A DNA stretch of 64,000 bases from an uncultured Alphaproteobacteria bacterium (GCA_944389465.1 CALXML010000004.1:14578-78577), one strand, 5' to 3'. Shown: positions 7,895 to 52,051, numbered from the stretch's first letter. Notes: generated from the sequence alone by a model not told the origin. Numbers and translations: made by a program.

Positions 7895-10800
7895 TTATGC
7901 TTTTTCAATATTAATTGATAAATCATAACCTTCAACAGATGTATTATACACCCCATTTTCACTTTGCGACATATTTTTTATCAGTGCATCACGCATAATA
8001 CGGTCACGATGTTGTTCAATGGCGTTTGCCAGTGCAGGTTCTGCATAATACGTCATATTTATACGGTCAGAAACATCCAATCCGATTTCTTTGCGTGTAT
8101 CTTGGATAAAACGCAGGGTGTCATTTGCCAACCCTTCGGCAACCAGTTCAGAATTAATTTCTGTATCCAGCACAATAACAGCGGTATTATCAGGCAATGC
8201 AGCACCAGTTATATTATCACGCAATGTTAAACGTTTTTCAAATTCATCTGCATTTAATGTATATTCGCCAACGTATAATTTTCCATCACGAATTTCATAA
8301 TTACCCTGTTTAACAGCAGGAATAATTTCCTTTAATGCGCCACCCAAACGTGCACCAATTTTTGGTGTAATCAGATATACAAACGCATCAGCCACACTGC
8401 TAACATCATTTGTAAATTCCACAGATTTTACATTTAATTCATCACGGATAATATCTGAATATTCATTTAAATCTGCACCGGCCACAGTCAGTTTATTTAA
8501 AGGCAAACGATTACGTAATTTATATTGTTCGCGTAATTGTTTTCCAACTGATACAACCGATTGCACACGTCGCATATCAGCAACAATTTTTTTGTCATAT
8601 TGTTCAGCCGTTGGGAAAGACTGTAAATGCACACTTTCTGCACCAGTTAAATTTTTATAAATATAATCAGATATAAATGGTGCAAATGGTGCCAGCGCAC
8701 GGCATAACACGGTCAGCACTGTATACAGCGTATCAAACGCGTTTTGTTCTTCGTCCCAGAAACGCACACGTCCACGACGAATGTACCAGTTATTCAGCAC
8801 GTCCAAGAAACGAACAATTTCTTTGATTGCCACATCTGGTTTATATTCATCCAATGCGCCCCCAACAACTGAAACCAGTTCATTTAATTCCGCGATAATG
8901 TATTTATCCAATACATTTTCAGAATTTACATTTTCACGCGCAGTAATATTTCCTGCATTCGCATATAATGTAAAGAAGTGATACGCATTCCACAGTGGTG
9001 TTAATATCGTTTTTGTTGATTCAGAAAATACCTTGCCGGCCATATCAATGCCAACCGGTTCAGCCTTCAGGAAATTAGAACCCAATATAAACAGTCGCAC
9101 TGCATCCGCACCATATTTTTCAATCTGTTCAGATGGGTTAACAAAATTCCCCAGTGATTTAGACATTTTCTTTTTATTATCATCAACCACCATACCGTTA
9201 ACAGACACTGTTTTGAATGCAGGCTGGTCAAACAAAGCGGTCGCCAACACCATTAACGAATAAAACCACCCACGTGTTTGGTCTTGGCCCTCTATGATAT
9301 AATCTGCTGGGAAAGTTTCTTGGAACTTGTCAGCATTTTCAAACGGATAATGCAACGACGCAAACGGCATAGAACCGGATTCAACCCAACAGTCCAAAAC
9401 ATCTGGAATACGTGTCCAACCATCTTTGGTTAATTTATCCAATGTTGGACGATGCAGGTCATCAATCTTTTCGCCAAAGAAATCTTCTATTTCCGCAATA
9501 GAACCAAATACCTTGTATTCACCATCTTTTTCCCATATTGGCAGTGGTGTTCCCCAGAAACGATTGCGTGACACAGACCATGGGCGTGCGCCCTCTATCC
9601 ACGATAAAAATCTGTCACCAGCAGAAGTCCAATGTGTGTATTTTTTTGTGTTTTCAATTAATCGTTCACGAATCTTTGGTACATCAATATACCATGAATC
9701 AGTTGCACGATAAATTAACTTTTCTTTGCTGCGTGGCCCATATGGATAAGAATGCTTGTACTGCTCTTTCTTTACCAAATGCCCATTTTCGCGCAGATGT
9801 TGAATAATTTCAGGATTGGCTGTGAATATATTTTCACCGGCCCAATCGCGTACTTCATTGGTAAAGTTTCCATAATCATCAACATTTAAAATTACTGGGA
9901 ATTTAGCATCAATGTTTTTTGCCGCCCAAAAGTCATCTTCGCCATATGCGGGCGCAATATGCACAATACCAGTACCATCACTGTCGGAAACATAGTCTGC
10001 CGGTATAACCTGATATAACAAATCAGATTTTCCCACATAATAATCAAACAATGGTGTATAATGCAGGCCAACCAATTCAGTCCCCATAATTTCACCAATT
10101 TTTTCCGCGTTTGCAAATTGCTTTTCATACGCCCCCAGACGTGATTCAGCAATAATATAAACCGCACCATCGCTGTCACGCATACGCAGATATTTCATAT
10201 TTGGATTTACCGCCAATGCAGAATTTGCCGGCAAAGTCCACGGTGTTGTTGTCCACGCCAACACGCGGTCACCTGTTTCCAGTTCAAACCATACTGTTAT
10301 TGCATCATCAACAACATCCATATATTCAGATGATGCCTCGGAATTAGATAATACAGTGCCCAGTTTCCAGTCATATGGATTAACACGATAATCCTTGTAC
10401 AATAAACCGCGATTATATAATTCCTTGATTGCCCAAATAACAGATTCCATATAGTTTTTATCCATGGTGCGATAACCCTTGGCATCGCCACCATCAACCC
10501 AACGACCAATGCGTTCAATAAACTTCAGCCATTCATTTGAATATGTTAAAACATCCGCACGACACATATCACAAAAGGCAGCAATACCATCACTGGCAAC
10601 AATATCCTTGGCCTGTCTGTGTTGTTTTTTTTCAACAGACTGTTCGGCGGGCAATCCATGGCAATCCCACCCCAGTTCACGCACAACATGACGACCACGC
10701 ATTGTTTGATAACGACCAACCATATCCTTGACAGCAGAAACACCCAAATGCCCCCAGTGTGGCAAATTATTTGCAAACGGTGGCCCATCATAGAATGAAA

Positions 10801-11154: not shown

Positions 11155-12804
11155 TTAATTTCCACATTTAATTTTGCGCAGTACAACCATAATGCCGGCT
11201 GGTGTCATTCCAGATATACGGGATAATTCCGCGATATTTTCCGGCCGCGTGGCGGTTAATTTTTCAACCAATTCATTGGTCAGACCGGCCAAACCACGAT
11301 ATTCAAAATTGGTTGGAATTTTTAATGCGGCATCACGACGGTATGCGGCAATTTCACGTTCATTGCGCTGGATATATCCGGCATAGAATTTGTCATTTTC
11401 GCGAATTTTATCGGCGCGATACGCATATTTTTCATCCCGCGCGGCGGCATCCAACAACCCCAATGTCACCGCCATATCGCCCAGTCGTGCAATTGCATTA
11501 TCCGCACGCAACCGCAGACGATATTCCGCACGTGATGTAAACATACGATACGGCTCATCCACACCCAATGTTGTTATGTCATCAATCAACACACCAATCA
11601 TTGCGTTTGTTCTGTCCAATTGCACCGGCGGCAACCCCAGTGCATATGCGCCCGCATTTGCACCCGCAACAATGCCCTGTGCGGCGGCCTCTTCATATCC
11701 AGATGTGCCATTTATTTGTCCCGCAAAGAATAAACCTGATATGTCTTTGGATTCCAGCGTGCTGCGCAATGCGCGTGCATCAATTGCATCATATTCAATT
11801 GCATATCCATAACGTGCAATACGTGCGTTTTCCAGTGCTGGGATTGTGCGAATCCATTTATCCTGTATATCTGCGCCGAAACTGGTTGAAATACCGTTTG
11901 GGTAAATTAAGTCACTGTCCAGTCCCTCGGGTTCCAGAAAAACATGATGTGATGTATGTTCTGGAAAACGCATAACCTTGTCTTCTATGCTGGGGCAATA
12001 TCGTGGGCCTGTGCCCTGAATATCGCCATTATACATTGGGGCATTACTAATATTTTCACGAATTATATCATGTGTTTGTTGATTTGTATGCGTGATATAG
12101 CAAACAGCATCATAATTATTTGCCGGATTTGGTGCACTGAACCAATCATGTGGTGTGTCACCCCGTTGCAGTTCACATACAGAAAAATCAACAGAATCAC
12201 GATATATACGTGCGGGCGTTCCTGTTTTCAGACGCATTAATTTAAACCCAGCATTCGCCAATACGCCCGATATATTTTTATCAGCCGCCTGATATTTTCC
12301 ATCATCCATCATACGACCAGAAGGAATTTTTTCCGTACCACGTGTTACCAATCCGCGCAGGAAAGTTCCCGTCGTCAACACAATTGCACGCGCTGAATAT
12401 TTATTGTTTATAACTTTGCGTTCAATATCCAAACTGTCAACGGGTTCAAATTGCAGGGTCAAATTTTTATAATTATTCAGAATTTGTGTGATTGCATTGT
12501 GATACAGATTTCTGTCTATTTGCGCACGTAACGCTTGGGTTGCTGCGCCATGTGATGCATTCAGCGTACGAAAATGAATGCCGGCCGCATCAGCCGCACG
12601 CCCCATAACCCCGCCCAATGCATCTATTTCTGCAACCATTTGGGATTTTCCGGCCCCACCTATACTGGGGTTACAAGACATTGCACCTAAATCAGTCGCA
12701 CATTGTGTTATTAACAATGTGCGTGCACCACGTCTGGCGGCGGCGGCGGCGGCTTCGGTTCCTGCGTGTCCACCACCAATAACAATCACATCAAATTCAG
12801 TCAT
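11155..12804 (-). CDS. mnmG: tRNA uridine-5-carboxymethylaminomethyl modification enzyme (short form)
   Basis: GGGHAGTEAA, MSCNPSIGG, RLKTGTP, GPRYCPSIEDK, GQINGTSGYEEAAAQG, EPYRMFTSRAEYRL. Confidence 0.97.
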   Translation of the reverse strand: MTEFDVIVIGGGHAGTEAAAAAARRGARTLLITQCATDLGAMSCNPSIGGAGKSQMVAEIDALGGVMGRAADAAGIHFRTLNASHGAATQALRAQIDRNLYHNAITQILNNYKNLTLQFEPVDSLDIERKVINNKYSARAIVLTTGTFLRGLVTRGTEKIPSGRMMDDGKYQAADKNISGVLANAGFKLMRLKTGTPARIYRDSVDFSVCELQRGDTPHDWFSAPNPANNYDAVCYITHTNQQTHDIIRENISNAPMYNGDIQGTGPRYCPSIEDKVMRFPEHTSHHVFLEPEGLDSDLIYPNGISTSFGADIQDKWIRTIPALENARIARYGYAIEYDAIDARALRSTLESKDISGLFFAGQINGTSGYEEAAAQGIVAGANAGAYALGLPPVQLDRTNAMIGVLIDDITTLGVDEPYRMFTSRAEYRLRLRADNAIARLGDMAVTLGLLDAAARDEKYAYRADKIRENDKFYAGYIQRNEREIAAYRRDAALKIPTNFEYRGLAGLTNELVEKLTATRPENIAELSRISGMTPAGIMVVLRKIKCGN

Positions 12805-20396: not shown

Positions 20397-21453
<1,057 letters not shown>

Positions 21454-21455
<2 letters not shown>

Positions 21456-21480
21456 AAAAACTGGCATTTGCCAGTTTTTT
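21454..21480 (+). terminator. mreB terminator (CCGGCATTT family variant)
   Basis: AAAAAAACTGGC-ATTT-GCCAGTTTTTT. Confidence 0.8.
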
Positions 21481-21534
21481 ATTTGGGATTTTTTTTGTCT
21501 AGATTTTATTGCTTTATATTGCAATAATACTTAT

Positions 21535-21712
21535 TGCACTGGACGACTACCAATGCGGGGCGTGATAACCTCTGAAGTTGTCGGAAACGACATAAAACAT
21601 TTACTCCAACTAAGCGTTGCAGGTTGGAGGGTCGTGATATATATGAATAAACGACGCTATTACTTCAATAGTTATCAACCTCCAACCGCCATTAGTCAGG
21701 CGGCGTTTTTAT
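21535..21712 (+). ncRNA. C4/CI-antisense-like structured leader, copy 1
   Basis: Closing stem GGTTGGAGG/CCTCCAACC, two inner hairpins, bipartite complementarity to an upstream target, overlapping terminator; aligns with copy 2. Confidence 0.75.
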
Positions 21713-21744
21713 TTGCATTTTTTGCAAAAAATAGGGGAAATACT

Positions 21745-22335
21745 ATGAAGAAAAAATTATGTTTAATTAGCTTATTTTTGTGTGATGCGGCATTTGCGGT
21801 GGGGACACCTACACTCTATTACTGTAATTGTGGGCCTGGTTATGAAAGTACTAATAGCGTTTATAATCGTTTGGATGCGTGTAAAAGTTCAAGTGATACA
21901 GAATGTATAGTGTCATCTTCGTCAACTGGATTTGTGTACAGAATGTCATATCAGGAAGCAGAACCAGCCTGTGGTGTGTGTCAGTGTTATTCAACTGTAA
22001 ATGACTGGGAGTATAGCAGCTATTGTACGGTAAAAAGGACTAATATCAGAGTTTATGATAGCGGTGAGTTTTCAACAACTTGCAATTATGAATTTGAAAC
22101 AGATGTTGGGTGTGATGACGGATGTTATATGGAGTGGTATGAACCTCAGAATCTTGATATTGGGTGTACAAGCTGTCCCAGAGTTTCTGATGATTGGACA
22201 GATTGTTATGGAAGAAGCAAAATAGGAAATAAACAAGGAATAGATGGATGCTGGCTTCCTTATTGTGGTAATATGGACGATGAAACTGGTACTTGGGTTA
22301 TTACGGAAGACGAAAAATGCTTTTATCAACCGTAA
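21745..22335 (+). CDS. Secreted Cys-rich hypothetical protein (196 aa)
   Basis: AGGGGA RBS; MKKK signal peptide ending AFA; many Cys; C-terminal DETGTW...CFY. Confidence 0.85.
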   Translation: MKKKLCLISLFLCDAAFAVGTPTLYYCNCGPGYESTNSVYNRLDACKSSSDTECIVSSSSTGFVYRMSYQEAEPACGVCQCYSTVNDWEYSSYCTVKRTNIRVYDSGEFSTTCNYEFETDVGCDDGCYMEWYEPQNLDIGCTSCPRVSDDWTDCYGRSKIGNKQGIDGCWLPYCGNMDDETGTWVITEDEKCFYQP

Positions 22336-30820: not shown

Positions 30821-32433
30821 TTTAAATCCCTTAATTTTTTACGAACCTGTGGGACGATAACCAATCCATCATCAGATAATTCAATTGCACGTGTGTACGC
30901 ATCGCGTGCCAGATTTTCGTCACCAGATGCAACATATAAATCACCCAGTTGTTCAAACAGTGATGAACATGTTGCAGAAACCTCGCCGACACGTTCCAAT
31001 ACATCCAATGCCGGTTCAATTCCTTCGCGTACAGTAATAACGCGGCCCAACGTATCCCATGCCATTATGCTGGTTGGGTCTTGCTTTACCAATGTCATTG
31101 CATAATCATATGCGTTTTCAATTTCACGCCCCTGTGCGGCCCAAATTTTGGCCTGTAAAGCCATAATTTCACCATCCAGCGGCATTATTTGTGATGCTTC
31201 GTGTAAATCGTTTTGTGCATCTTTTAAATCGTCAAACATATAATATATGTGCGCCCTGCTCTTCATAAAAAAAGCGCGCCCATATTCAGTTATGTTTTCA
31301 TCATCCAATGCCATATTTACAGTACGCAATGCTGCGCGACGGTTACCGTTTTGGACATTATATGCAATTAATTTATTTACCGCCGGCACAAACAGTGGAT
31401 TTTGTTTTACTGCCTTTTCCAGTGCCCCGATATCATTATTACTTTCTGCGATTTTCATCACTGCAAACAGATAAAAAGGACTGTCGGATGATATTTTTGA
31501 AAAATATTTTTCAAAATCGCCATGATTATTATAAAAGAATTGCCCCAGATAATAATTAATTGCATCACTGTTTTTGCCGAAATCAGGACTGCTGACCTGT
31601 GCAAAACGTAATAATAACATTGCCAAATCAGAATACATCATTATTTGTGTGTGTGATACGGTTTGCACCAAACTGAATGCCAATTCATTTTGAATGCCGG
31701 AAAACATTTCCCAATCAGGAACATCCGCATAATCCAGCATATACATTCCGCCCGCACGTGCGGTAAAATCATCGTGCAGTTTTTGTGCCGCATCATTCAG
31801 ATTATTATGTTTGTAAAAAGACATTACATACAAATAATCGCTGATATTCATAAAATCAACGCGTACCTTGGCAAAATATTCGGCGGCTTTATCAATATCA
31901 TCAGTTTCAGCATAAATTTGGCCGGTGATAAAGTTTTGCCATGCCTCGTTCGTGGGTAAATCCTTTATAAATTTAATGGCGTCTTTTTCTTTGCCAATTG
32001 CCACAGATGACCATATGCGCAACGGTGCGGCCAATGCAGATTCATCCTTTTTATGGCGTTGATACAAATCATCCCATTTGCCCTGTTGTGCCAAATAAGC
32101 ATCATAAATCAGGCGTGATGCGGTTGTTTTTTCCTCTTCCAGTACTATGACGCCATCTGGCATACGGCCACTTAAAAAATCGGCTAAAAATTTAGTTGAT
32201 TGTACAATTGAATAATCAACATCAGTTAATAAATTGGCGTATTTGGACGCACTGTCAAAATCATTAACGTAAATAGCATGTTGTGCAGCCAAAAAGTTAC
32301 CGTATTGAGTATCTGGATAAATATGTGTTTTTGACGTGTCGGCAATATGGCCGTGATACCATACAGCACCACCAATCACGGCAAGAACTGCAACCAATGC
32401 GACACCAATAAATAATGTTTGTGCTTTTTTCAT
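30817..32433 (-). CDS. Membrane-anchored TPR-repeat protein
   Basis: N-terminal TM; YG.FLAA; C-terminal TPRs (DTLG, EQLGDLY...A..AY.RA). Confidence 0.75.
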   Translation of the reverse strand: MKKAQTLFIGVALVAVLAVIGGAVWYHGHIADTSKTHIYPDTQYGNFLAAQHAIYVNDFDSASKYANLLTDVDYSIVQSTKFLADFLSGRMPDGVIVLEEEKTTASRLIYDAYLAQQGKWDDLYQRHKKDESALAAPLRIWSSVAIGKEKDAIKFIKDLPTNEAWQNFITGQIYAETDDIDKAAEYFAKVRVDFMNISDYLYVMSFYKHNNLNDAAQKLHDDFTARAGGMYMLDYADVPDWEMFSGIQNELAFSLVQTVSHTQIMMYSDLAMLLLRFAQVSSPDFGKNSDAINYYLGQFFYNNHGDFEKYFSKISSDSPFYLFAVMKIAESNNDIGALEKAVKQNPLFVPAVNKLIAYNVQNGNRRAALRTVNMALDDENITEYGRAFFMKSRAHIYYMFDDLKDAQNDLHEASQIMPLDGEIMALQAKIWAAQGREIENAYDYAMTLVKQDPTSIMAWDTLGRVITVREGIEPALDVLERVGEVSATCSSLFEQLGDLYVASGDENLARDAYTRAIELSDDGLVIVPQVRKKLRDLK

Positions 32434-32459: not shown

Positions 32460-33017
32460 ATGAATAATAAAGAGAAATTTGTCCGTTACGCACAAATGTT
32501 ACGTGATTGGTCGTCGCGTATGAATTTGGTCGCGCCCAGCACCCTGAATGATATAGAAAAACGTCATTTCGCGGACAGTGCCCAATTGGCCGATGTTTTG
32601 CCGGCAAATGCAAACGTTATTGATTTGGGCAGTGGGGCCGGATTCCCCGGTGTTGTTTTGGCAATATTGGGATGGCGTGTTACGTGTACGGAATCTATTG
32701 GCAAAAAGGTTGCATTCTTAAACGCCGTGCGTGATGAATTAAAATTGGATAATTTAACAATATATCATGGCCGGATTGAAAATTATATCGCCACCCTGCC
32801 CCACGATAACAAAACTGTATTTACCGCGCGTGCATTTGCACCACTGATAAAAATTTTAGATTACACCGCCAAAACACATTATCCACTTTATCTATTAAAA
32901 GGTCGGGAAATACCGGCTGAAATTGATGTTGCGCGTCGTAAATATAAATTTAGTTATAAATTAATTCCATCCAAAACCGGTGATGGGTATATAATTATTG
33001 TTCAAAAAGGCCGGTAA
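32460..33017 (+). CDS. rsmG: 16S rRNA m7G527 methyltransferase (GidB)
   Basis: MNLV, RHFADS, DLGSGAGFPG, TARAFA; ATG 32460. Confidence 0.95.
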   Translation: MNNKEKFVRYAQMLRDWSSRMNLVAPSTLNDIEKRHFADSAQLADVLPANANVIDLGSGAGFPGVVLAILGWRVTCTESIGKKVAFLNAVRDELKLDNLTIYHGRIENYIATLPHDNKTVFTARAFAPLIKILDYTAKTHYPLYLLKGREIPAEIDVARRKYKFSYKLIPSKTGDGYIIIVQKGR

Positions 33018-33031
33018 TTTCATATGAAATA
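33016..33031. promoter_or_regulatory. Candidate variant parS site 1
   Basis: AATTTCATATGAAATA (14-bp perfect palindrome). Confidence 0.6.
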
Positions 33032-33049
33032 ATAAATAACCATATGATA

Positions 33050-33976
33050 TTAGCGTGTTTTTACACTTGCAAATAAATATGCGTTTTTGCCGGTAATTTG
33101 TTGTATAACAGAATCTGTTGCATGCAGTAATTTTTCTTTTTGTGTTTGACTGGCATTATCCCATATGTTTACATCGCCGTTCAATGATTCAAATTGCCAC
33201 AGCGGCCCCCATAAATTAAATTCAGGATAAAAGCAAAGTGTTTGCTGTATTTTGCACATATCGTTTGTGATATACCGGTTCGGTATTGTGTGCAACATTG
33301 CTTCTTTGATTGTTGTTTTGTACAGTCCGCGATTTGTTTCAGCCAAAAATCGTTCTGTGGCGCATTGCATAATAATGTCCGCCAGTTTTGGGTTGTTGAA
33401 ATCCAGTGGCCATTTTAATTTATCACGTAATGCAATATTTGTGATTAAACGGTCCGCCTTTTTAATAAAAGGTTTACGTGTGGGAAACGCGTGCCCCGTT
33501 TGATAACGGTAATCCAGTGCCTCTATTATTTCGGCGGCGGGTGCAATAATTTCGTTTTGGCTGGCGATTCGTCCGCGGATAATGGGCGAATAATGCCAAA
33601 TGTTTTTTGTTAATATTGCTTTGCGGGCATGTTCAATCTCGTGCCGGCGTACCAGTGGTATTTGCAGATTATTTGTTTCACAGAAAGATATCGTTCGTTG
33701 GGTGGAACTGGCCGGCTTTAAATAATTGATTTTTATTATACCGTCATGTGGCATAAAAACACCGGCCGCAATAATTGTACGATTTGCCAGCATTTCATCC
33801 GTAATCAGAACTGTATCTGTTTGTGTGCGAATACTTGTATTAATATACTTTATATTTATACTGGTATTTACCGGCTTTTTCGTGTGTTTATTTCCGGTAA
33901 AATTATGTAAATATGCGCCCGTTCCAAAGCCCATAATAAACGTTGCTGTTAAAAAATAGAGTGTTTTGAAAGTCAT
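33050..33976 (-). CDS. Exported hypothetical protein with an HExxH motif
   Basis: N-terminal hydrophobic segment; RRHEIEH; start ATG 33976 preferred. Confidence 0.7.
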   Translation of the reverse strand: MTFKTLYFLTATFIMGFGTGAYLHNFTGNKHTKKPVNTSINIKYINTSIRTQTDTVLITDEMLANRTIIAAGVFMPHDGIIKINYLKPASSTQRTISFCETNNLQIPLVRRHEIEHARKAILTKNIWHYSPIIRGRIASQNEIIAPAAEIIEALDYRYQTGHAFPTRKPFIKKADRLITNIALRDKLKWPLDFNNPKLADIIMQCATERFLAETNRGLYKTTIKEAMLHTIPNRYITNDMCKIQQTLCFYPEFNLWGPLWQFESLNGDVNIWDNASQTQKEKLLHATDSVIQQITGKNAYLFASVKTR

Positions 33977-34018
33977 ACAGGTATAATAATCCAAAATATA
34001 TTTTTGTCAATCTGTTTG

Positions 34019-34034
34019 TATTTCATATGAAATA
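34019..34034. promoter_or_regulatory. Candidate variant parS site 2
   Basis: Perfect 16-bp palindrome TATTTCATATGAAATA about 120 bp upstream of parA. Confidence 0.62.
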
Positions 34035-34153
34035 ACATTTATTATATTGATAACAGTTGATTTTTTATTTTGTAAATATAATTGACTTGACCGAATCGGT
34101 GGATTTATTCTATTTATTGTAATGTTAAAGAATTAATTTAATGGACGGGATAA

Positions 34154-34927
34154 ATGGTACAAATTATTGCATTTGCAAATCAAAAGGGTGGGGTTGGTAA
34201 AACAACAACTGCCATAAATTTGGGTGCGTCGTTGGCCGCAATTAAAAAGCGCGTTTTGTTGGTTGATTTGGATTCACAGGGCAATGCCAGTACGGGGTTG
34301 GGCTTTGTGCGTGCCGCACATCCGCAAAGTGTGTACGGTGTAATTATGGGCACGGCGAATGCTGCTGATAATATTTTAACAACATCTGTGCCTGAATTGC
34401 ATTTGATGCCATCGTCAATGGCGTTGGCTGGGGCCGAAGTTGACCTGTTGGATATGGAACATCGTGAATACAGATTGCGTGATGCATTAATGCCACTGTA
34501 TGATTATTATGATTATATCTTGTTGGATTGTCCGCCGGCATTGGGATTTTTAACATTAAATGCGCTAACAACTGCAAACAATGTCATAATTCCGCTGCAG
34601 TGTGAATTTTTTGCACTGGAAGGTATCAGTCACTTAATAAATTCAATTCGTGAAATAAAGAACAAGTGGAATCCAGAACTGGAAATTTTGGGTGTTTTAT
34701 TAACAATGTATGATAAAAGATATGCATTAACCCGTGATGCAGAAAATGATGTTCGTAACACATTTGGGGATTCTGTTTTTAAAACAGTTGTGCCGCGTAA
34801 TGTTCGCGTGTCCGAAGCCCCCAGTCATGGCAAGCCTGCATTATTTTATGATTTTAATTCATCCGGCGCACAGGCATATTTGCGTGTCGCGACCGAGGTT
34901 GTTGAACGTTTAGAACAGGGGGATTAA
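34154..34927 (+). CDS. parA: Chromosome partitioning ATPase
   Basis: NQKGGVGKTTT, DLDSQGNAS, DCPP, QCEFFALEG, EAPSHG. Confidence 0.96.
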   Translation: MVQIIAFANQKGGVGKTTTAINLGASLAAIKKRVLLVDLDSQGNASTGLGFVRAAHPQSVYGVIMGTANAADNILTTSVPELHLMPSSMALAGAEVDLLDMEHREYRLRDALMPLYDYYDYILLDCPPALGFLTLNALTTANNVIIPLQCEFFALEGISHLINSIREIKNKWNPELEILGVLLTMYDKRYALTRDAENDVRNTFGDSVFKTVVPRNVRVSEAPSHGKPALFYDFNSSGAQAYLRVATEVVERLEQGD

Positions 34928-34930
34928 GAT

Positions 34931-35809
34931 ATGTCAAAATTTGGATTGGGACGTGGTTTGGCCGATTTAAAACAAGAAATGGGAAATATCCCAGATATAT
35001 CCATATTAACCGGTGCTGAACGTGTTGTTGTAAAGCAAATACCCTTGGCGCAAATTGGGGCAAATCCGGACCAGCCACGTAAAACATTTACTGAATCAGA
35101 ATTGTCTGATTTGGCGGCATCTATTAAGGAAAAGGGCGTTTTACAACCGATTTTATTACGTGCGGTCAGTGGGCGTCCATATATGTATGAAATCGTTGCG
35201 GGTGAACGTCGTTGGCGGGCCAGTAAATTGGCGGGGCTGACCGAAATTCCGGCGTTGGTAAAGCAGTTAACAAATGAAAATGCAATGGAAATTGCATTGA
35301 TTGAAAATGTACAGCGCGAAAATTTAAACCCAATAGAGGAATCAAATGCGTATAAAAATCTGATGGAAAAATGCGGTTACGAATTGTCCGATGTTTCGCG
35401 TTTAATTGGTAAATCAGAAAGTTATATCAGAAACATTATGCGTTTGGATTCTTTGCCGGCGGATGTAAAGCATATGGTGGAGCAGGGCGATATATCCGCA
35501 TCACACGCGCGCACAATTGCCGTGGCGGAAAATCCGACTGAATTGGCGCATAAAATTATTGATAATAATTTGTCTGTTGCGGAAACAGAAAAAATGGTTC
35601 GTGACACTGCACGCCGCCAAACCAGTCGCGCATACAATGCCAAAACAATAGACGCACAAACGGTGCATGACATTGAATCAAAAATATCAACAGTATTGGG
35701 CGTGAATGCCAAACTGCGTGAAAAGCGGGGCGGGGCAGGGCAAATAATTTTAAATTTTGCCACACGTATGCAATTGCATGATTTGGTTGAAAAATTAACC
35801 AGCAAATAA
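34931..35809 (+). CDS. parB: Chromosome partitioning protein ParB
   Basis: GLGRGL, QPRK, GVLQPI, AGERRWRA, ENVQRENL, HTH. Confidence 0.96.
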   Translation: MSKFGLGRGLADLKQEMGNIPDISILTGAERVVVKQIPLAQIGANPDQPRKTFTESELSDLAASIKEKGVLQPILLRAVSGRPYMYEIVAGERRWRASKLAGLTEIPALVKQLTNENAMEIALIENVQRENLNPIEESNAYKNLMEKCGYELSDVSRLIGKSESYIRNIMRLDSLPADVKHMVEQGDISASHARTIAVAENPTELAHKIIDNNLSVAETEKMVRDTARRQTSRAYNAKTIDAQTVHDIESKISTVLGVNAKLREKRGGAGQIILNFATRMQLHDLVEKLTSK

Positions 35810-35814
35810 TATAT

Positions 35815-35902
35815 AAAAATGCCGGCATTTACCGGCATTTTTATTGATACAGGAAATCGGATAAAAAATAACAAAAAAACACCGGCAATTGCCGGTGTTT
35901 TT
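35815..35902. terminator. Two terminators of the CCGGCA(T/A)TT family between parB and pal
   Basis: AAAATGCCGGCATTTACCGGCATTTT and AAAAACACCGGCAATTGCCGGTGTTTTT. Confidence 0.8.
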
Positions 35903-35921
35903 TGTATATATTTTACAACAA

Positions 35922-36338
35922 TTATTTAACTGTTGTTGTGGCGTTACGGTTATATTTCCAAACTTCTTCACCAGTACCCTTGACCAATGGGCGTTCTTTA
36001 CCGTATGAAATTGTGGAAATACGTGCGGAATCAATACCGTCGTTAACCAATACTTCCTTGGCTGCGTTTGCACGACGTGCGCCCAAAGCCAAGTTGTATT
36101 CTGTTGAACCACGTTCGTCGCAGTTACCAGCAATTTGGATTTTAACATCTTCGTGATTCTTCATATACAGTGCCTGACCCAACAGGTTGTCACGTGCATC
36201 ATCAGAAATTTCAGATGAATTAAACGCAAAGAATACGCGTTGTTCATTCAAATCAGCCGGTTCAACGATTGTAGAACCACCACAGGCGGCCAACAAACCT
36301 GCAACCCCAGCCAACATAGCAAAGTTTTTTATTTTCAT
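35922..36338 (-). CDS. pal: Peptidoglycan-associated lipoprotein (OmpA domain)
   Basis: LAAC lipobox, GNCDERGSTEYNLALG.RRA, SYGKERP. Confidence 0.92.
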   Translation of the reverse strand: MKIKNFAMLAGVAGLLAACGGSTIVEPADLNEQRVFFAFNSSEISDDARDNLLGQALYMKNHEDVKIQIAGNCDERGSTEYNLALGARRANAAKEVLVNDGIDSARISTISYGKERPLVKGTGEEVWKYNRNATTTVK

Positions 36339-38079: not shown

Positions 38080-38358
38080 TTATTCCAGTGGACAGGCGAC
38101 AGTATATTCGTATGTTCCAGATTCGTCAATATATTGGGTGTTTGCCGGTGCATACATAATGCATGAACCGGCGGGTGACGCCACCAAACAACTGTCCGCC
38201 GTACCGGTGGATGTATATCCGGTGGGACACGAACCGTCCGCAATTGTCATATATTCTTCTTCTATCGCGACATAACCCGATGGGCACGATGTGGACGGTG
38301 CGATGGCAAATGCACCAACCGGCGTAATTACCATAATTAAAACCGATATTCGTTTCAT
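38080..38358 (-). CDS. Small secreted Cys-rich protein (92 aa)
   Basis: Signal peptide ending AFA; two SCP(S/T)GY repeats; C-terminal DESGTYEY...C; G7 RBS. Confidence 0.82.
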   Translation of the reverse strand: MKRISVLIMVITPVGAFAIAPSTSCPSGYVAIEEEYMTIADGSCPTGYTSTGTADSCLVASPAGSCIMYAPANTQYIDESGTYEYTVACPLE

Positions 38359-38369
38359 ATCCCCCCCGT

Positions 38370-38789
38370 TTAGTCAGATAAATTACTAAACATTGAAGCG
38401 CGTATAGATGCTTCATCTCTCAAATTATACGCACATGTAGAAGCACAGTTTGTGGCACAGGAAGCAGCTGTGCTGTATGATCTAGAAAATACCCATTGTG
38501 AAACCGCCGGACTAATCATTCTGCACCAGCAATATTTATTGTTATCCAATGTATAAGATATTTCTACATAATAATTAGTTGTTGCACCCATTGAACCACC
38601 ATTTTGCGAGCCACAAAATGCAATCCCTTCAATAGACGTACCATCACATGTTGCAGAAAAGTCAGAATCCCGCCCAAAAAAACTAGAACACGTTGTTGAT
38701 GGTGTTAAGGCTACATATTTTGTAACCGCCGTGGCGGGTGGGATTGTGGCCGCGCAAATCAGGCCGGTGATTAATAAATATTTTTTCAT
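38370..38789 (-). CDS. Secreted Cys-rich protein (139 aa)
   Basis: GGAG RBS; MKKY signal peptide; CWC...WVF...CxxxCxxxC. Confidence 0.85.
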   Translation of the reverse strand: MKKYLLITGLICAATIPPATAVTKYVALTPSTTCSSFFGRDSDFSATCDGTSIEGIAFCGSQNGGSMGATTNYYVEISYTLDNNKYCWCRMISPAVSQWVFSRSYSTAASCATNCASTCAYNLRDEASIRASMFSNLSD

Positions 38790-38821
38790 ATTCTTATCTC
38801 CATTTTCTTTTGTTTGTGAAT

Positions 38822-38991
38822 AAAGAAAACCACCGGAATTTTCAGGTGGTTGGAGTTTAAGAACAATCACTATAATTGCGTGGTTTATTCAGTATATTCA
38901 CCACACTCCAACCATAATGGTTGGATTTGTTTTACGTCGGTGTCCGACGATAGTGAAGGGTTCTTAAGCCCAATATGGGAATACCCCATAT
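38822..38991 (-). ncRNA. C4/CI-antisense-like structured leader, copy 2
   Basis: Closing stem GGTTGGAGT/ACTCCAACC; compensatory changes relative to copy 1 in the inner stems, target boxes and terminator; TTGATT-16 bp-TATTAT promoter upstream. Confidence 0.78.
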
Positions 38992-41949: not shown

Positions 41950-42432
41950 ATGTATGTTCGCCCGTTAATAGTATTCAAAACCCCATTTTATCAGCCAGCC
42001 TACAGCGAGTTCAGAAATCCGTCAGAATTGCAGAAATTTTTGGCGGGTTTTGACTTTATGCGTCCGCATACATGTTCACGCCTGCAAACTGGGTTGCCAG
42101 AATTTCAATTGGGGACTAAATTGGAATTTACATTGGACGGGTATTTTTGCGAATCAAACATACAGTGGGGACCACGTTTTATAGTTGGGCGTTCGGTACG
42201 TACAGATGGCCATCGCATAATCGCAGAAATCCCAATGGATGTTGCGGATACGGATGGCAAAATGGTAAGACGCGAATATAAAACAGTTCAATTACACCGC
42301 GGTATGGCAGACGCCATAATAAATTTGCAAAATATGCAACAACTGTGGCCACGCACAGAAGAAAGCCGTTCGGAATTTGTAAAGTTTTTAACATATCTGA
42401 ATCGTCAAAAATATCAAATAAAGCGCAGATAA
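41950..42432 (+). CDS. Hypothetical protein
   Basis: 160-aa ORF with AAGGA RBS, tightly packed between mutS and truB. Confidence 0.7.
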   Translation: MYVRPLIVFKTPFYQPAYSEFRNPSELQKFLAGFDFMRPHTCSRLQTGLPEFQLGTKLEFTLDGYFCESNIQWGPRFIVGRSVRTDGHRIIAEIPMDVADTDGKMVRREYKTVQLHRGMADAIINLQNMQQLWPRTEESRSEFVKFLTYLNRQKYQIKRR

Positions 42433-50029: not shown

Positions 50030-52051
50030 TCAGTATCGTTGGCCATTAATACTCATCCCAAATTTAAATTGAAATGATGTTGTCCCGACATAGTCATTTT
50101 TAATCGCATTATCACGATGGTATTCCAATGATAAATAATAGCACGGATGGGTATAGAATACCCCCCCAGAATGACGTTGGAATCTGTTGTCCGTGACATT
50201 GTATACTGCATTAAAGCGCACTGACCACCGGTTAGTCAATTGGACACCAATCCCCGCCATAAATTCGTTTATACTGTCCTGTTCCGCATTATTCGCATAT
50301 GTATCAATAAATTTACGTGACCAAATATGTCCAACTTTTAAGAAATTTTCAGAAGTTCCAATAATGGCAGATGTTTCCATATGTTGCAGTGCCATATCTG
50401 CTTGGTCCAGTCTGAATCTGGTTGTAAAATCCAACCATTCCGCATTGTCATATTCAAGGCGTCCCACGTAATCGGATGCGCCATTATGAAATCCAGTGTT
50501 TGTATCTGTTTGAAAACGGGCTGTGAAATCATAAGTTTGACCGACAAAAACCTCAAACGTTTGGCCGGCCTGATTAAATGCAGAATAACTGACACCATAA
50601 TCAGCATATGTGCCATTTTCCCATAAATCAAAACCAGAAAACCGGTTGTCAGAAAACAGTGTTGTATCAGATAAAAATGCACCCGCAGAATCATTGTTTA
50701 TTGCAAATTGACTTTCGTCTGTTTCGCGCATAACAGTTAATCGTGCGCGTGGTTCAATAACCTGTATCCATTCGCTGGTGGTGCGGAATAAAGGCAATCC
50801 CCATTCAACATATCCACTGGGTAAAAATCTGTCCTTCAGGCCTGAAAAACTGGCCATGTCCACCAAATCCGTGTCGTTAAAATTGTACACATCGTAACGT
50901 GCAGATATACTGGCCGTTATTCTGTTGCCACCCCATAACGTCCACGGTGAAATGACGCGAACATCACCGATTAAACGTTGGGAAGATGTGCCATCCCCAG
51001 AAATTCCCAATACGTCCGCATCCAATGTAAAATAAGTTTCCTTAAATACAGGCTTGGTCTGATATGTTGCACGTATGTTTGGCAAAATATTGCCCGACGG
51101 TGTGGCATAATAACGGTTTCCACTTCTTAATTCTTGGAATATATGTGCATCGGCAACAACATAACCACTTTGCCCAAACAGTTCAATTGACGCGCCGGAA
51201 TCCAAGTAAGGCTGGTCATCATAAAATCCATATTTTTGCAGGAATGTTTTATCAGATGCGCGTTCCAAAAATACTGTTGCACGTGCATATTCACCCAACC
51301 CGATAACGTCATTATTGGATATGTACCATCTGTCTTCGCCCATACGATTATGGGTATATGCGCCATACGTGCGATATTGTGAATGGTCCAGATTTAACCG
51401 ATGTTCCAATTGGAACAAAGGATTTTCTTTTGTTAAAATAGATGTAGTAAACGTTAAATCGTGTGTGTCTGAAAAATTCACATACAAAGGTATGTTTATT
51501 TGCGTTCCCATATTGTTGGTGGAACCAAAATCAGGCATTAAAAAACCTGTTTTATATTTTACAGACGGGTCAGGCATTTCAAAGAAAGGCAACCAAAACA
51601 CCGGTATATCATATGTACGCAGCACTGGACTGAAAAAACGCAACATATGCGATTCCATATCGTGTACAATTCTGCGTGTGGAAATTCGCCATGCGTCCCC
51701 ATATGCATCACAATCATCGCATGCGGTAAAAGAGGCGTTATATGCGATGGTTTCGTCACCCTGATGAACAATGTTATCCGATTCAATGTAAACGTGGTCA
51801 CCCAACCATAATTTTATATCATTACCGGCCATATTTTTGCCGTTGTTTGACAGGTAAGAATCAGTCAGGGTCATGCGCTGGCCGGTTTGATTAACGATTT
51901 CAGTGTCCCCAGACGTTTTAATTGTTTCTGATTTTACATCGTATTCAATTTTATCAGCCGTAATAGTTTTTGGGGTTTCAACGTCAACAGATGCCGCATT
52001 GACAATTGCAGGATACAGGCAGAATATAAAAGATAAATAATATTTTCTCAT
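50030..52051 (-). CDS. lptD: LPS-assembly protein LptD
   Basis: SFTAC, PVFWLP, TGFLMP, LFSDNRFSGFD, HPC; beta-barrel character. Confidence 0.9.
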   Translation of the reverse strand: MRKYYLSFIFCLYPAIVNAASVDVETPKTITADKIEYDVKSETIKTSGDTEIVNQTGQRMTLTDSYLSNNGKNMAGNDIKLWLGDHVYIESDNIVHQGDETIAYNASFTACDDCDAYGDAWRISTRRIVHDMESHMLRFFSPVLRTYDIPVFWLPFFEMPDPSVKYKTGFLMPDFGSTNNMGTQINIPLYVNFSDTHDLTFTTSILTKENPLFQLEHRLNLDHSQYRTYGAYTHNRMGEDRWYISNNDVIGLGEYARATVFLERASDKTFLQKYGFYDDQPYLDSGASIELFGQSGYVVADAHIFQELRSGNRYYATPSGNILPNIRATYQTKPVFKETYFTLDADVLGISGDGTSSQRLIGDVRVISPWTLWGGNRITASISARYDVYNFNDTDLVDMASFSGLKDRFLPSGYVEWGLPLFRTTSEWIQVIEPRARLTVMRETDESQFAINNDSAGAFLSDTTLFSDNRFSGFDLWENGTYADYGVSYSAFNQAGQTFEVFVGQTYDFTARFQTDTNTGFHNGASDYVGRLEYDNAEWLDFTTRFRLDQADMALQHMETSAIIGTSENFLKVGHIWSRKFIDTYANNAEQDSINEFMAGIGVQLTNRWSVRFNAVYNVTDNRFQRHSGGVFYTHPCYYLSLEYHRDNAIKNDYVGTTSFQFKFGMSINGQRY

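Follow-up and report, generated by a model that had tools for sequence, protein, structure and literature searches.

A remodeled ParB and a probably relaxed parS in a small-genome alphaproteobacterial lineage

Introduction

ParB and parS are a textbook case of a near-invariant protein-DNA pair, and a locus at which both partners depart from the rule raises the question of whether the recognition code has been rewritten or loosened. Such a locus lies in the 64,000-nucleotide stretch of DNA from an uncultured Alphaproteobacteria bacterium (GCA_944389465.1) that we analyzed at its full length, hereafter the window, in which the partition genes parA and parB stand downstream of two 16-bp parS-like palindromes. 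An earlier note on this DNA proposed that the site had been re-coded to a new word, that Glu had replaced the guanine-reading Arg of ParB, and that the two had co-evolved to a new specificity. We find that a whole lineage breaks the rule, with parAB intact and the sites conserved, and we favor, at a probability of about 0.7, a reading in which ParB has been remodeled and AT drift has acted on a relaxed parS, in preference to a clean switch to a site read by Glu.

In the crystal structure of the Caulobacter ParB-parS complex, the site is contacted by Q162, G170, K171, S172, R173, N178, G201, and R204, and R173 hydrogen-bonds guanine 1, equivalent to position 2 in the 16-mer (PMC7383237). The note was thus right that this Arg reads the outer G, and guanine 1 is the base that changed here. 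The same 2020 study, the main experimental work on this specificity, describes the conservation of R173 and G201 among extant ParB orthologs as absolute; in its deep mutational scan parS-specific variants always had R173, whereas Ser was tolerated at 201, and R173Q variants that lacked a permissive Lys at either 179 or 184 were nonfunctional, binding 0 of 16 test sites (PMC7383237). Its methods give the consensus parS as TGTTTCAC-GTGAAACA and the Noc-binding site (NBS) as TATTTCCC-GGGAAATA, in agreement with the sites quoted in the note, and a review lists TGTTNCACGTGAAACA-type sites for model species (PMC7022226, Table 1).

The comparison covers the window and, for each relative, the parB locus with two flanks of at most 10 kb each (~20 kb). 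One scan of species-representative genomes returned 93 relatives, of which the best 80, with ParBs 65–86% identical, were kept; they are recorded as uncultured Alphaproteobacteria and 'Candidatus Enterousia', apart from a few under other names that are presumably mislabeled bins. Enterousia belongs to the order Rs-D84 and has genomes mostly <1 Mb (PMC12306168). Site searches extended over 1,597,474 bp (80 loci plus the window) from 81 genomes, 79 of them informative; the two in which no site was seen have contigs that stop 27–33 bp before parA and are hence uninformative.

Two parS-like sites beside parAB

In the window, rsmG (gidB; + strand, 32460..33017; Pfam GidB, 1.5e-36), the gene for a 16S rRNA methyltransferase, is followed by a minus-strand open reading frame (ORF) of no known family, by parA (+, 34154..34927; Pfam AAA_31, 1.7e-62, and CbiA, 6.9e-29), which encodes a Walker-type partition ATPase of 257 amino acids, and directly thereafter, in one operon with parA, by parB. 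The rsmG start was set at ATG 32460 because the ORF start at 32415 overlaps a divergent gene ending at 32433. Site B (34019..34034), 135 bp upstream of the parA ATG (34154), is the perfect palindrome TATTTCATATGAAATA; site A (33016..33031), AATTTCATATGAAATA, differs by one mismatch, at position 1, and overlaps the rsmG stop codon TAA (33015–33017), the last two bases of which are its first two. At up to 3 mismatches TATTTCATATGAAATA matches the window 6 times against 1.66 expected, a count reached in 1 of 100 shuffles, and every match apart from sites A and B has 3 mismatches. The 12-bp core TTTCATATGAAA has exactly two exact copies in the window and, at up to 1 mismatch, 4 matches against 0.96 expected (4 reached in 1/100 shuffles). 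Canonical parS, TGTTNCACGTGAAACA, has no window match at up to 2 mismatches, and its 7 matches at 3 mismatches (3.81 expected) are at chance level. TATTTCATATGAAATA and consensus parS agree at 12 of 16 bases, the 4 differences (positions 2, 8, 9, and 15) all being symmetric transitions. Both the palindrome and its copy with one outer mismatch had been described in the note, as had the lack of a canonical parS in the window, and these observations stand: the sites are nonrandom, parS-derived, and conserved beside parA.

The conservation extends across the lineage. The pattern TTTCAYRTGAAA gives 153 matches in the 1,597,474 bp, 151 of them within the rsmG-parA spacer, and each of the 79 informative genomes has at least one site beside parAB. 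Two sites with core TTTCAYRTGAAA are present in 72 of the 79; among the seven genomes with one, four hold a core copy with 1–2 mismatches at the second position. A homolog of site B is present in 78/79 informative genomes, 100–147 bp upstream of parA except in L029 (205 bp), and a site A homolog with core TTTCAYRTGAAA is found in 73/79. Positions 1 and 2 of site A read AA, AG, or GA because the preceding T is retained, giving TAA, TAG, or TGA stop codons, and its GT flank is kept in 68–70 of the 73 genomes. The distance between the sites is 59–213 bp in 40 genomes, 976–1,085 bp in 30, and ~3.1 kb in two (L021, 5982–9110; L029, 5881–9028). The three ORFs between the sites of L021 have lengths and strands like those of gpsA, the TPR gene, and rsmG in the window, a likeness read from lengths, and the presumed rsmG ORF continues across site B and terminates where that site ends.

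Not one perfect canonical parS is present across the 1.597 Mb. L011 and L028 carry TGTTTCATGTGAAACA, one base off canonical parS, at the normal site position. A one-mismatch canonical-like match at L035:1529 and its two-mismatch twin at L035:998 both lie inside a 458-amino-acid minus-strand ORF and probably represent a repeated coding motif of a candidate two-domain GTPase, not parS; another one-mismatch match lies at L050:324. A third parS-like palindrome in the window, TGTTCCAATTGGAACA (51402–51417), with canonical-type parS arms around an AT center, is probably a coding coincidence. It lies within lptD, where it encodes part of a conserved PLFQ(L/I)EH stretch, and the corresponding position in L046, the sole relative that covers it (1/1), is not palindromic. 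Exact matches to TGTTNCANNTGNAACA in the 80 loci number only two, the site-B copies of L011 and L028.

A ParB altered where it meets DNA

The parB gene (+, 34931..35809) encodes 292 amino acids that score above cut-off for Pfam ParB_N, the N-terminal CTPase domain (4.2e-34; 116.9 bits versus a cut-off of 26.3), for HTH_ParB, the central helix-turn-helix domain (8e-27; 93.8 versus 22.6), and for the ParB family model TIGR00180 (180.1 versus 58.45). The Noc model TIGR04285 scores 209.2 bits, below its cut-off of 315, and ParB_C, the C-terminal dimerization domain, 19.4 bits versus 23.8. The translation contains FGLGRGL, with the LG(R/K)GL ParA-binding motif (as LGRGL), and GERRWRA, a GERRxRA box (motifs as defined in PMC12704722), together with ENVQRENL. 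Its best solved relative is Caulobacter ParB, 6T1F (E = 4.7e-54), to which the helix-turn-helix aligns without a gap, GKSESYIRNIMRL...ISASHAR facing GKSRSHVANTMRL...LTAGHAR. We took Caulobacter numbering as the printed 6T1F chain index plus 10, our own count, which reproduces R173/T179/A184/G201. On this alignment the four specificity residues are replaced as R173 to E163, T179 to I169, A184 to S174, and G201 to S191, so that the Arg-to-Glu and Gly-to-Ser changes read in the note are correct. Three further substitutions are absent from its residue list: A177 to R167, Q162 to L152, and R227 to A217. All codons are on the + strand: those of the recognition helix, G160–L172 (GKSESYIRNIMRL), occupy 35408..35446, with E163 at 35417–35419 and R167 at 35429–35431, and L152, S191, and A217 are encoded at 35384..35386, 35501..35503, and 35579..35581, respectively. 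Caulobacter numbers are used below.

The altered helix-turn-helix is a fixed trait of the lineage. The best 120 database homologs (78–100% identity) all read GKS[E/D]SYI[R/K]N, and in 81 of 81 clade ParBs R173 is absent and Arg or Lys is present at 177. Residue 173 is E in 60, A in 9, D in 7, V in 2, and Q, S, or P in one each; among the 74 ParBs that could be aligned the counts are E53/A9/D7/V2/Q/S/P, and the seven outside the alignment combine E173 with R or K177. In the 74, position 177 is R70/K4, position 162 is L60/M12/I2, and position 201 is Ser throughout (74/74), while G170 (S in 7), K171, S172, N178, and R204 are retained. An outgroup of 144 ParB representatives, from a library clustered at 50% identity, has R173 in 141, Q162 in 122 (H in 16), and G201 in 136 (S in 6), with R or K at 177 in 0/144 (A98, T27, S16). 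At the edge of the clade the bit score falls from 296, for its last member, to 221, for the first protein of the outgroup. More distant relatives, with identities as low as 52%, also pair a non-Arg residue at 173 with R/K177 and have S, T, A, or G at 201; no protein among the clade, deeper-relative, and outgroup ParBs has R173 together with R/K177. In an unbiased column scan, 11 of 292 positions combined ≥75% conservation among outgroup proteins with retention in ≤10% of the clade, and seven of these (161, 162, 173, 183, 201, 206, and 227) fall in the DNA-binding domain; for Arg at 227, conservation in the outgroup reaches 98%.

On a quick maximum-likelihood tree of the 74 ParBs, residue 173 changes 13 times, 179 15 times, 184 25 times, 177 twice, and 201 not at all. 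Residue 173 changes about as often as the tolerant positions 179 and 184, and now appears to evolve freely. The more constant change is the gain of Arg or Lys at 177, which the note had not singled out. Individual proteins add some variety. Two clade ParBs (L030 and L039) have, besides R177, a Lys at 179 (IRNKMRL), a Noc permissive-lysine position; an unrelated representative (P0255) has E173 too, with S177 and G201; and a ParB 52% identical (P0123) has I173, K177, and G201 and lacks H202.

Site variation across the lineage

The 151 spacer sites give the lineage consensus W-R-TTTCA-Y-R-TGAAA-Y-W, which differs from canonical parS at positions 2/15, a purine/pyrimidine pair (A 80%, G 20%), and at the center, which can be any pyrimidine-purine step. 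Counted over 302 half-sites, position 2 is A in 242, G in 59, and T in 1, and position 8 is T in 208 and C in 94; the centers are TA in 66 sites, TG in 41, CA in 35, and CG in 9. With the 73 stop-codon-bound half-sites set aside, position 2 still reads A 174, G 54, and T 1 (n = 229), and its restriction to purines is real, since the adjacent position 1 mixes T and A freely. A search with the center left free found no center other than pyrimidine-purine in the rsmG-parA spacer (all 151 conform). On the ParB tree the ten inner arm bases are strictly retained, with 0 changes, and positions 2, 8, 9, and 15 change 11–16 times each, almost only by transitions; position 2 of site A, bound to the stop codon, changes four times. 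The spacer around the sites is 25% GC, and the G/C share at the relaxed positions is 20–31%. A canonical-like subset of half-sites in which G2 goes with C8 was sought and rejected: C8 accompanies G2 in 14 of 59 cases (24%) and A2 in 80 of 242 (33%). By our own estimate, the pattern with R2 and Y15 would have ~0.15 chance matches in a 0.9-Mb genome of this composition; a site relaxed to this degree would therefore still mark a unique locus.

These counts bear on two claims of the note. A site re-coded to one new word does not agree with a position 2 that is A, G, or once T, with four pyrimidine-purine centers, or with 11–16 flips on the tree. Nor does Glu act as a new reader of A in any way that the sites reveal: position 173 is occupied by seven different residues, changes 13 times on the tree, and is unlinked to the base at position 2, where G makes up 20% of half-sites when residue 173 is E, 19% when it is A, and 21% when it is D. 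For position 177 there is a hint of a link, with 12 G and 4 A in the four genomes with K177 and 43 G and 216 A in those with R177. The K177-type genomes that tend to G2 are L005, L011, L022, L027, and L028 (sites at ~8970–9110), of which four were counted.

A relaxed read-out or a switch

We posit that the pair of palindromes serves as the chromosomal centromere (parS) in a gut alphaproteobacterium with a small genome, of the 'Candidatus Enterousia'/Rs-D84 kind. By analogy with the family, ParB dimers would nucleate on the sites (WRTTTCAYRTGAAAYW), bind CTP, close as clamps, and slide onto the adjacent DNA, and ParA would segregate the ParB-site complex. What sets the lineage apart would be a remodeling of the ParB DNA-contact surface, in which the guanine-reading R173 has gone and its position drifts, a new Arg or Lys has appeared at 177, one helical turn on and on the same face of the recognition helix (i+4), and positions 162, 201, and 227 have become hydrophobic, Ser, and Ala, respectively. 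R/K177 may supply the affinity lost with R173, either as a permissive substitution placed elsewhere than K179/K184 of Noc or through a contact to purine N7. Positions 2/15 would then be held only to purine/pyrimidine and the center to pyrimidine-purine, and AT-biased mutation would make A and TA the commonest states, the TATTTCATATGAAATA of the window being one outcome of AT drift within a relaxed pattern. A genome of <1 Mb presumably needs less site information, which may have allowed the relaxation.

Residue 173 varies and its identity is unrelated to the base; Glu is therefore unlikely to be a new base reader, and the G-specific contact seems simply to have been lost. A relaxed read-out with AT drift fits better because the site states flip 11–16 times and the G/C share is near that of the spacer. 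Of the proposal that site and protein co-evolved to a new specificity, the co-evolved pair thus survives in outline, and the new specificity is better described as a relaxed one.

The strongest competitor is a true switch, in which ParB prefers A2 and a TA center and ignores canonical parS, forming with its site a pair as orthogonal as Noc and NBS. The majority of A at position 2 (242/302 half-sites), the prevalence of TA among centers (66/151), the loss of the G reader R173 from 81/81 ParBs, and the absence of a perfect canonical site from the 1.597 Mb would all be expected of it; in Noc, moreover, loss of R173 accompanies A at the same base (PMC7383237), and the K177 genomes are richer in G2 than the R177 genomes. 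We nevertheless consider a switch unlikely, given that G is retained in 20% of half-sites and CG or half-CG centers in 56% of sites, that states flip repeatedly on the ParB tree, that base frequencies match the 25% GC of the spacer, that the residue at 173 varies widely without relation to the base, and that the sites of L011 and L028 lie one mismatch from canonical parS at the normal position.

Several observations weigh against the relaxed read-out that we prefer. (i) This ParB is paired with these sites on the grounds that the two are adjacent, that the sites resemble parS, and that both occur in one lineage, and both traits are present in all 81 genomes, so the association counts as one evolutionary event and not as repeated covariation. 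(ii) The role given to R/K177 is conjectural, and the link between K177 and G2 could mean that residue 177 tunes the base preference, which would favor a switch; this count has little weight, because K177 arose only ~2 times on the tree. (iii) The arm bases are invariant in part because the search pattern demands it, though four degenerate copies did turn up. (iv) Site counts cover only 64 kb of this genome and ~20 kb per relative. (v) For proximity to the origin, as would suit a centromere, the window offers no marker either way: DnaA boxes are at chance level and show no cluster (34 matches versus 26.4 expected), the sign of the GC skew tracks gene strand, and no dnaA gene is found.

A bolder version of the relaxed read-out is possible, although we regard it as doubtful: the positive charge would have moved from 173 to 177 in a second natural exit from canonical parS, distinct from that of Noc with its Q173 and permissive K179/K184, yielding a ParB that reads "purine" and binds canonical parS poorly, a naturally orthogonal pair enabled by the low information demand of a <1-Mb genome.

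Operators, insertion, or chance

The sites could instead be operators through which ParB or another regulator controls the parAB promoter and the divergent intervening gene, with no centromere involved. In an alignment of 78 spacers the site core stands out as an invariant island among mostly diverged columns and is followed by a promoter-like block, CTTGAC...TTaTA; in the window this block, CTTGACC ... TATTTA (+, 34086..34116), lies between site B and parA, is predicted from its footprint to function as a promoter, and overlaps TTGACT-18-TATTCT (34082–34111), found by a consensus scan. A second promoter-like element, TTGACA-16-TATTAT (-, 33983..34010), assigned from its consensus match (11 of 12), faces the intervening gene and lies directly against site B. 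Some 7 bp separate its end from the ATG of that gene (33976), the mRNA of which might be leaderless and might begin inside the ParB loading zone. Site B thus precedes the conserved -35-like parA block by ~55 bp and stands beside a strong promoter-like site, and transcriptional effects of chromosomal ParB near parS are reported in a review (PMC7022226). It overlaps neither promoter hexamer, however, and site A lies at the end of rsmG, far from promoters, in the 30 genomes with ~1-kb spacing; the sequence is plainly parS-derived and adjoins an intact parAB. Regulation and centromere function can coexist, and operators in place of a centromere strike us as quite improbable.

The window copies flank a 0.9-kb gene of no known family, and this arrangement suggests a target-site duplication or terminal repeats of an inserted gene; a target duplication was one of the findings that the note itself had named as undoing its proposal. 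The gene (-, 33053..33976, between sites A and B) encodes a 308-amino-acid protein with a hydrophobic N terminus and an HExEH motif and no Pfam, NCBIfam, or PDB sequence match; the pattern may resemble that of zinc metallopeptidases. A minus-strand homolog occupies all 29 other ~1-kb spacers (e.g., L003, L005, and L008) at 29–52% identity, where ParB is 65–86% identical, indicating a fast-evolving gene. HExEH is seen in 27 of the 30 sequences, in an invariant R-HExEH-ARK block that is followed ~26 residues further by an invariant N-E. Both sites are kept without the gene in 40 of the 72 two-site genomes, at 59–213 bp from each other; they are 3.1 kb apart in L021 and L029, in the former with three ORFs between them; and nearly every genome has site A bound to the stop codon of rsmG. 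On the ParB tree the gene switches between present and absent at least 14 times, four of these changes being forced by well-supported branches. Since the gene has been gained or lost repeatedly and the sites persist without it, its insertion does not account for them, and the empty loci that keep both copies refute a target-site duplication.

Chance AT-rich palindromes or RNA hairpins, such as an rsmG terminator, might be entertained in a window with 7 perfect 16-bp palindromes where 0.92 are expected (mononucleotide shuffles, maximum 4), but they are refuted by the conservation of the sites at fixed positions in 79/79 informative genomes, and the site hairpins are weak (-2.0 to -3.3 kcal/mol; z-scores 0.32 to -0.75), no better than shuffles, with no Rfam match at sites A or B. 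The other perfect palindromes include TGAAAAATATTTTTCA at 31498 and TATTTTCATGAAAATA at 36330, the latter spanning the start of an OmpA-family gene.

Surroundings of the locus

Downstream of parB, two terminator-like stem-loops (35813..35903), with only sub-threshold Rfam matches, are common to parB and the convergent OmpA-family gene. The usual gidA-gidB-parA-parB block is split in the window, with mnmG (gidA; -, 11155–12804) ~20 kb from rsmG and on the opposite strand, and mreB (20406–21455) and mreC (1270–2094) are likewise separated. Running off the window end at 62903–63967 (-) is a gene for a TraG/VirD4-like type IV secretion coupling protein (Pfam T4SS-DNA_transf, 7.3e-38), a hint that this very small genome may carry a conjugative or secretion element. 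ORFs at 38080–38870 (-), 41950–42429, 58763–59356, 61785–62816, and 21295–22332 are without a Pfam match, and those at 38370–38870, 41950–42429, 58763–59356, 61785–62816, and 21295–22332 are without an NCBIfam match as well; 38080–38870 encodes two adjacent small Cys-rich proteins with hydrophobic N termini.

Comparison with known systems

The lineage amounts to a natural experiment in the change of an essential recognition code, and residue 177 is a candidate compensating position that lies outside the four-residue mutational scan. In practice, a search that relies on the canonical parS consensus will return "no parS" for such genomes, and an additional ParB/site pair could serve the multicolor DNA labeling that is built on orthogonal ParB systems. 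We found no prior report of this ParB-site pair in the literature on the variant core, variant parS, parS of reduced or endosymbiont genomes, and ParB specificity or co-evolution; matches to variant 12-mers looked, by titles and abstracts, like primers or unrelated sequences, and in the part of the literature naming Enterousia that was covered there was nothing on parS.

Among known systems, the Bsr systems of multi-replicon Burkholderiales likewise comprise related 16-bp centromere families, each told apart by its own ParB (PMC5450999), but these are parallel systems on several replicons of one cell, whereas here a single chromosomal system would have drifted, and no sign of a second partition system is seen in the 64 kb. 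Small departures from the consensus also occur in ordinary ParABS, as in the parS spelling variants of S. pneumoniae (AGTTTCACGTGAAACT) and M. smegmatis (GTTTCACGTGAAAC) and in the half-parS binding of P. aeruginosa (PMC7022226); the spelling variants keep G2 and the CG center, however, and it is exactly these, together with the G-reading residue, that the present lineage changes.

The nearest parallel is Noc-NBS of Firmicutes, in which a ParB paralog has likewise dispensed with R173, the site carries A at the same position, and the outer TATTTC...GAAATA is identical to that of site B in the window. Loss of R173 in Noc is compensated by a new positive charge (PMC7383237). The details diverge: the residues here are E/I/S/S and not Q173/K179/K184/R201, the new charge is at 177 instead of 179/184, and NBS, TATTTCCCGGGAAATA, has C at position 7, where all 151 lineage sites have A, and a CCCGGG center in place of CATATG in the window and of pyrimidine-purine rather than CC-GG centers across the lineage. 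Noc, moreover, is a duplicate protein, while the ParB described here has a ParA partner in an alphaproteobacterium and scores below the cut-off of the Noc model.

With canonical ParABS (Caulobacter 6T1F and B. subtilis Spo0J) the system shares the rsmG-parA-parB order, the LGRGL and GERRxRA motifs and the HTH_ParB domain, a 16-bp palindrome with 12 of 16 bases in common with TGTTTCACGTGAAACA, and the contact residues G170, K171, S172, N178, and R204. It differs in the replacement of R173, G201, and Q162, in the gain of Arg or Lys at 177, in a consensus A for G at position 2 and any pyrimidine-purine step for the CG center, and in having only two sites seen near parAB. The system is still a ParABS system, but it is a natural exception to residues stated to be invariant.

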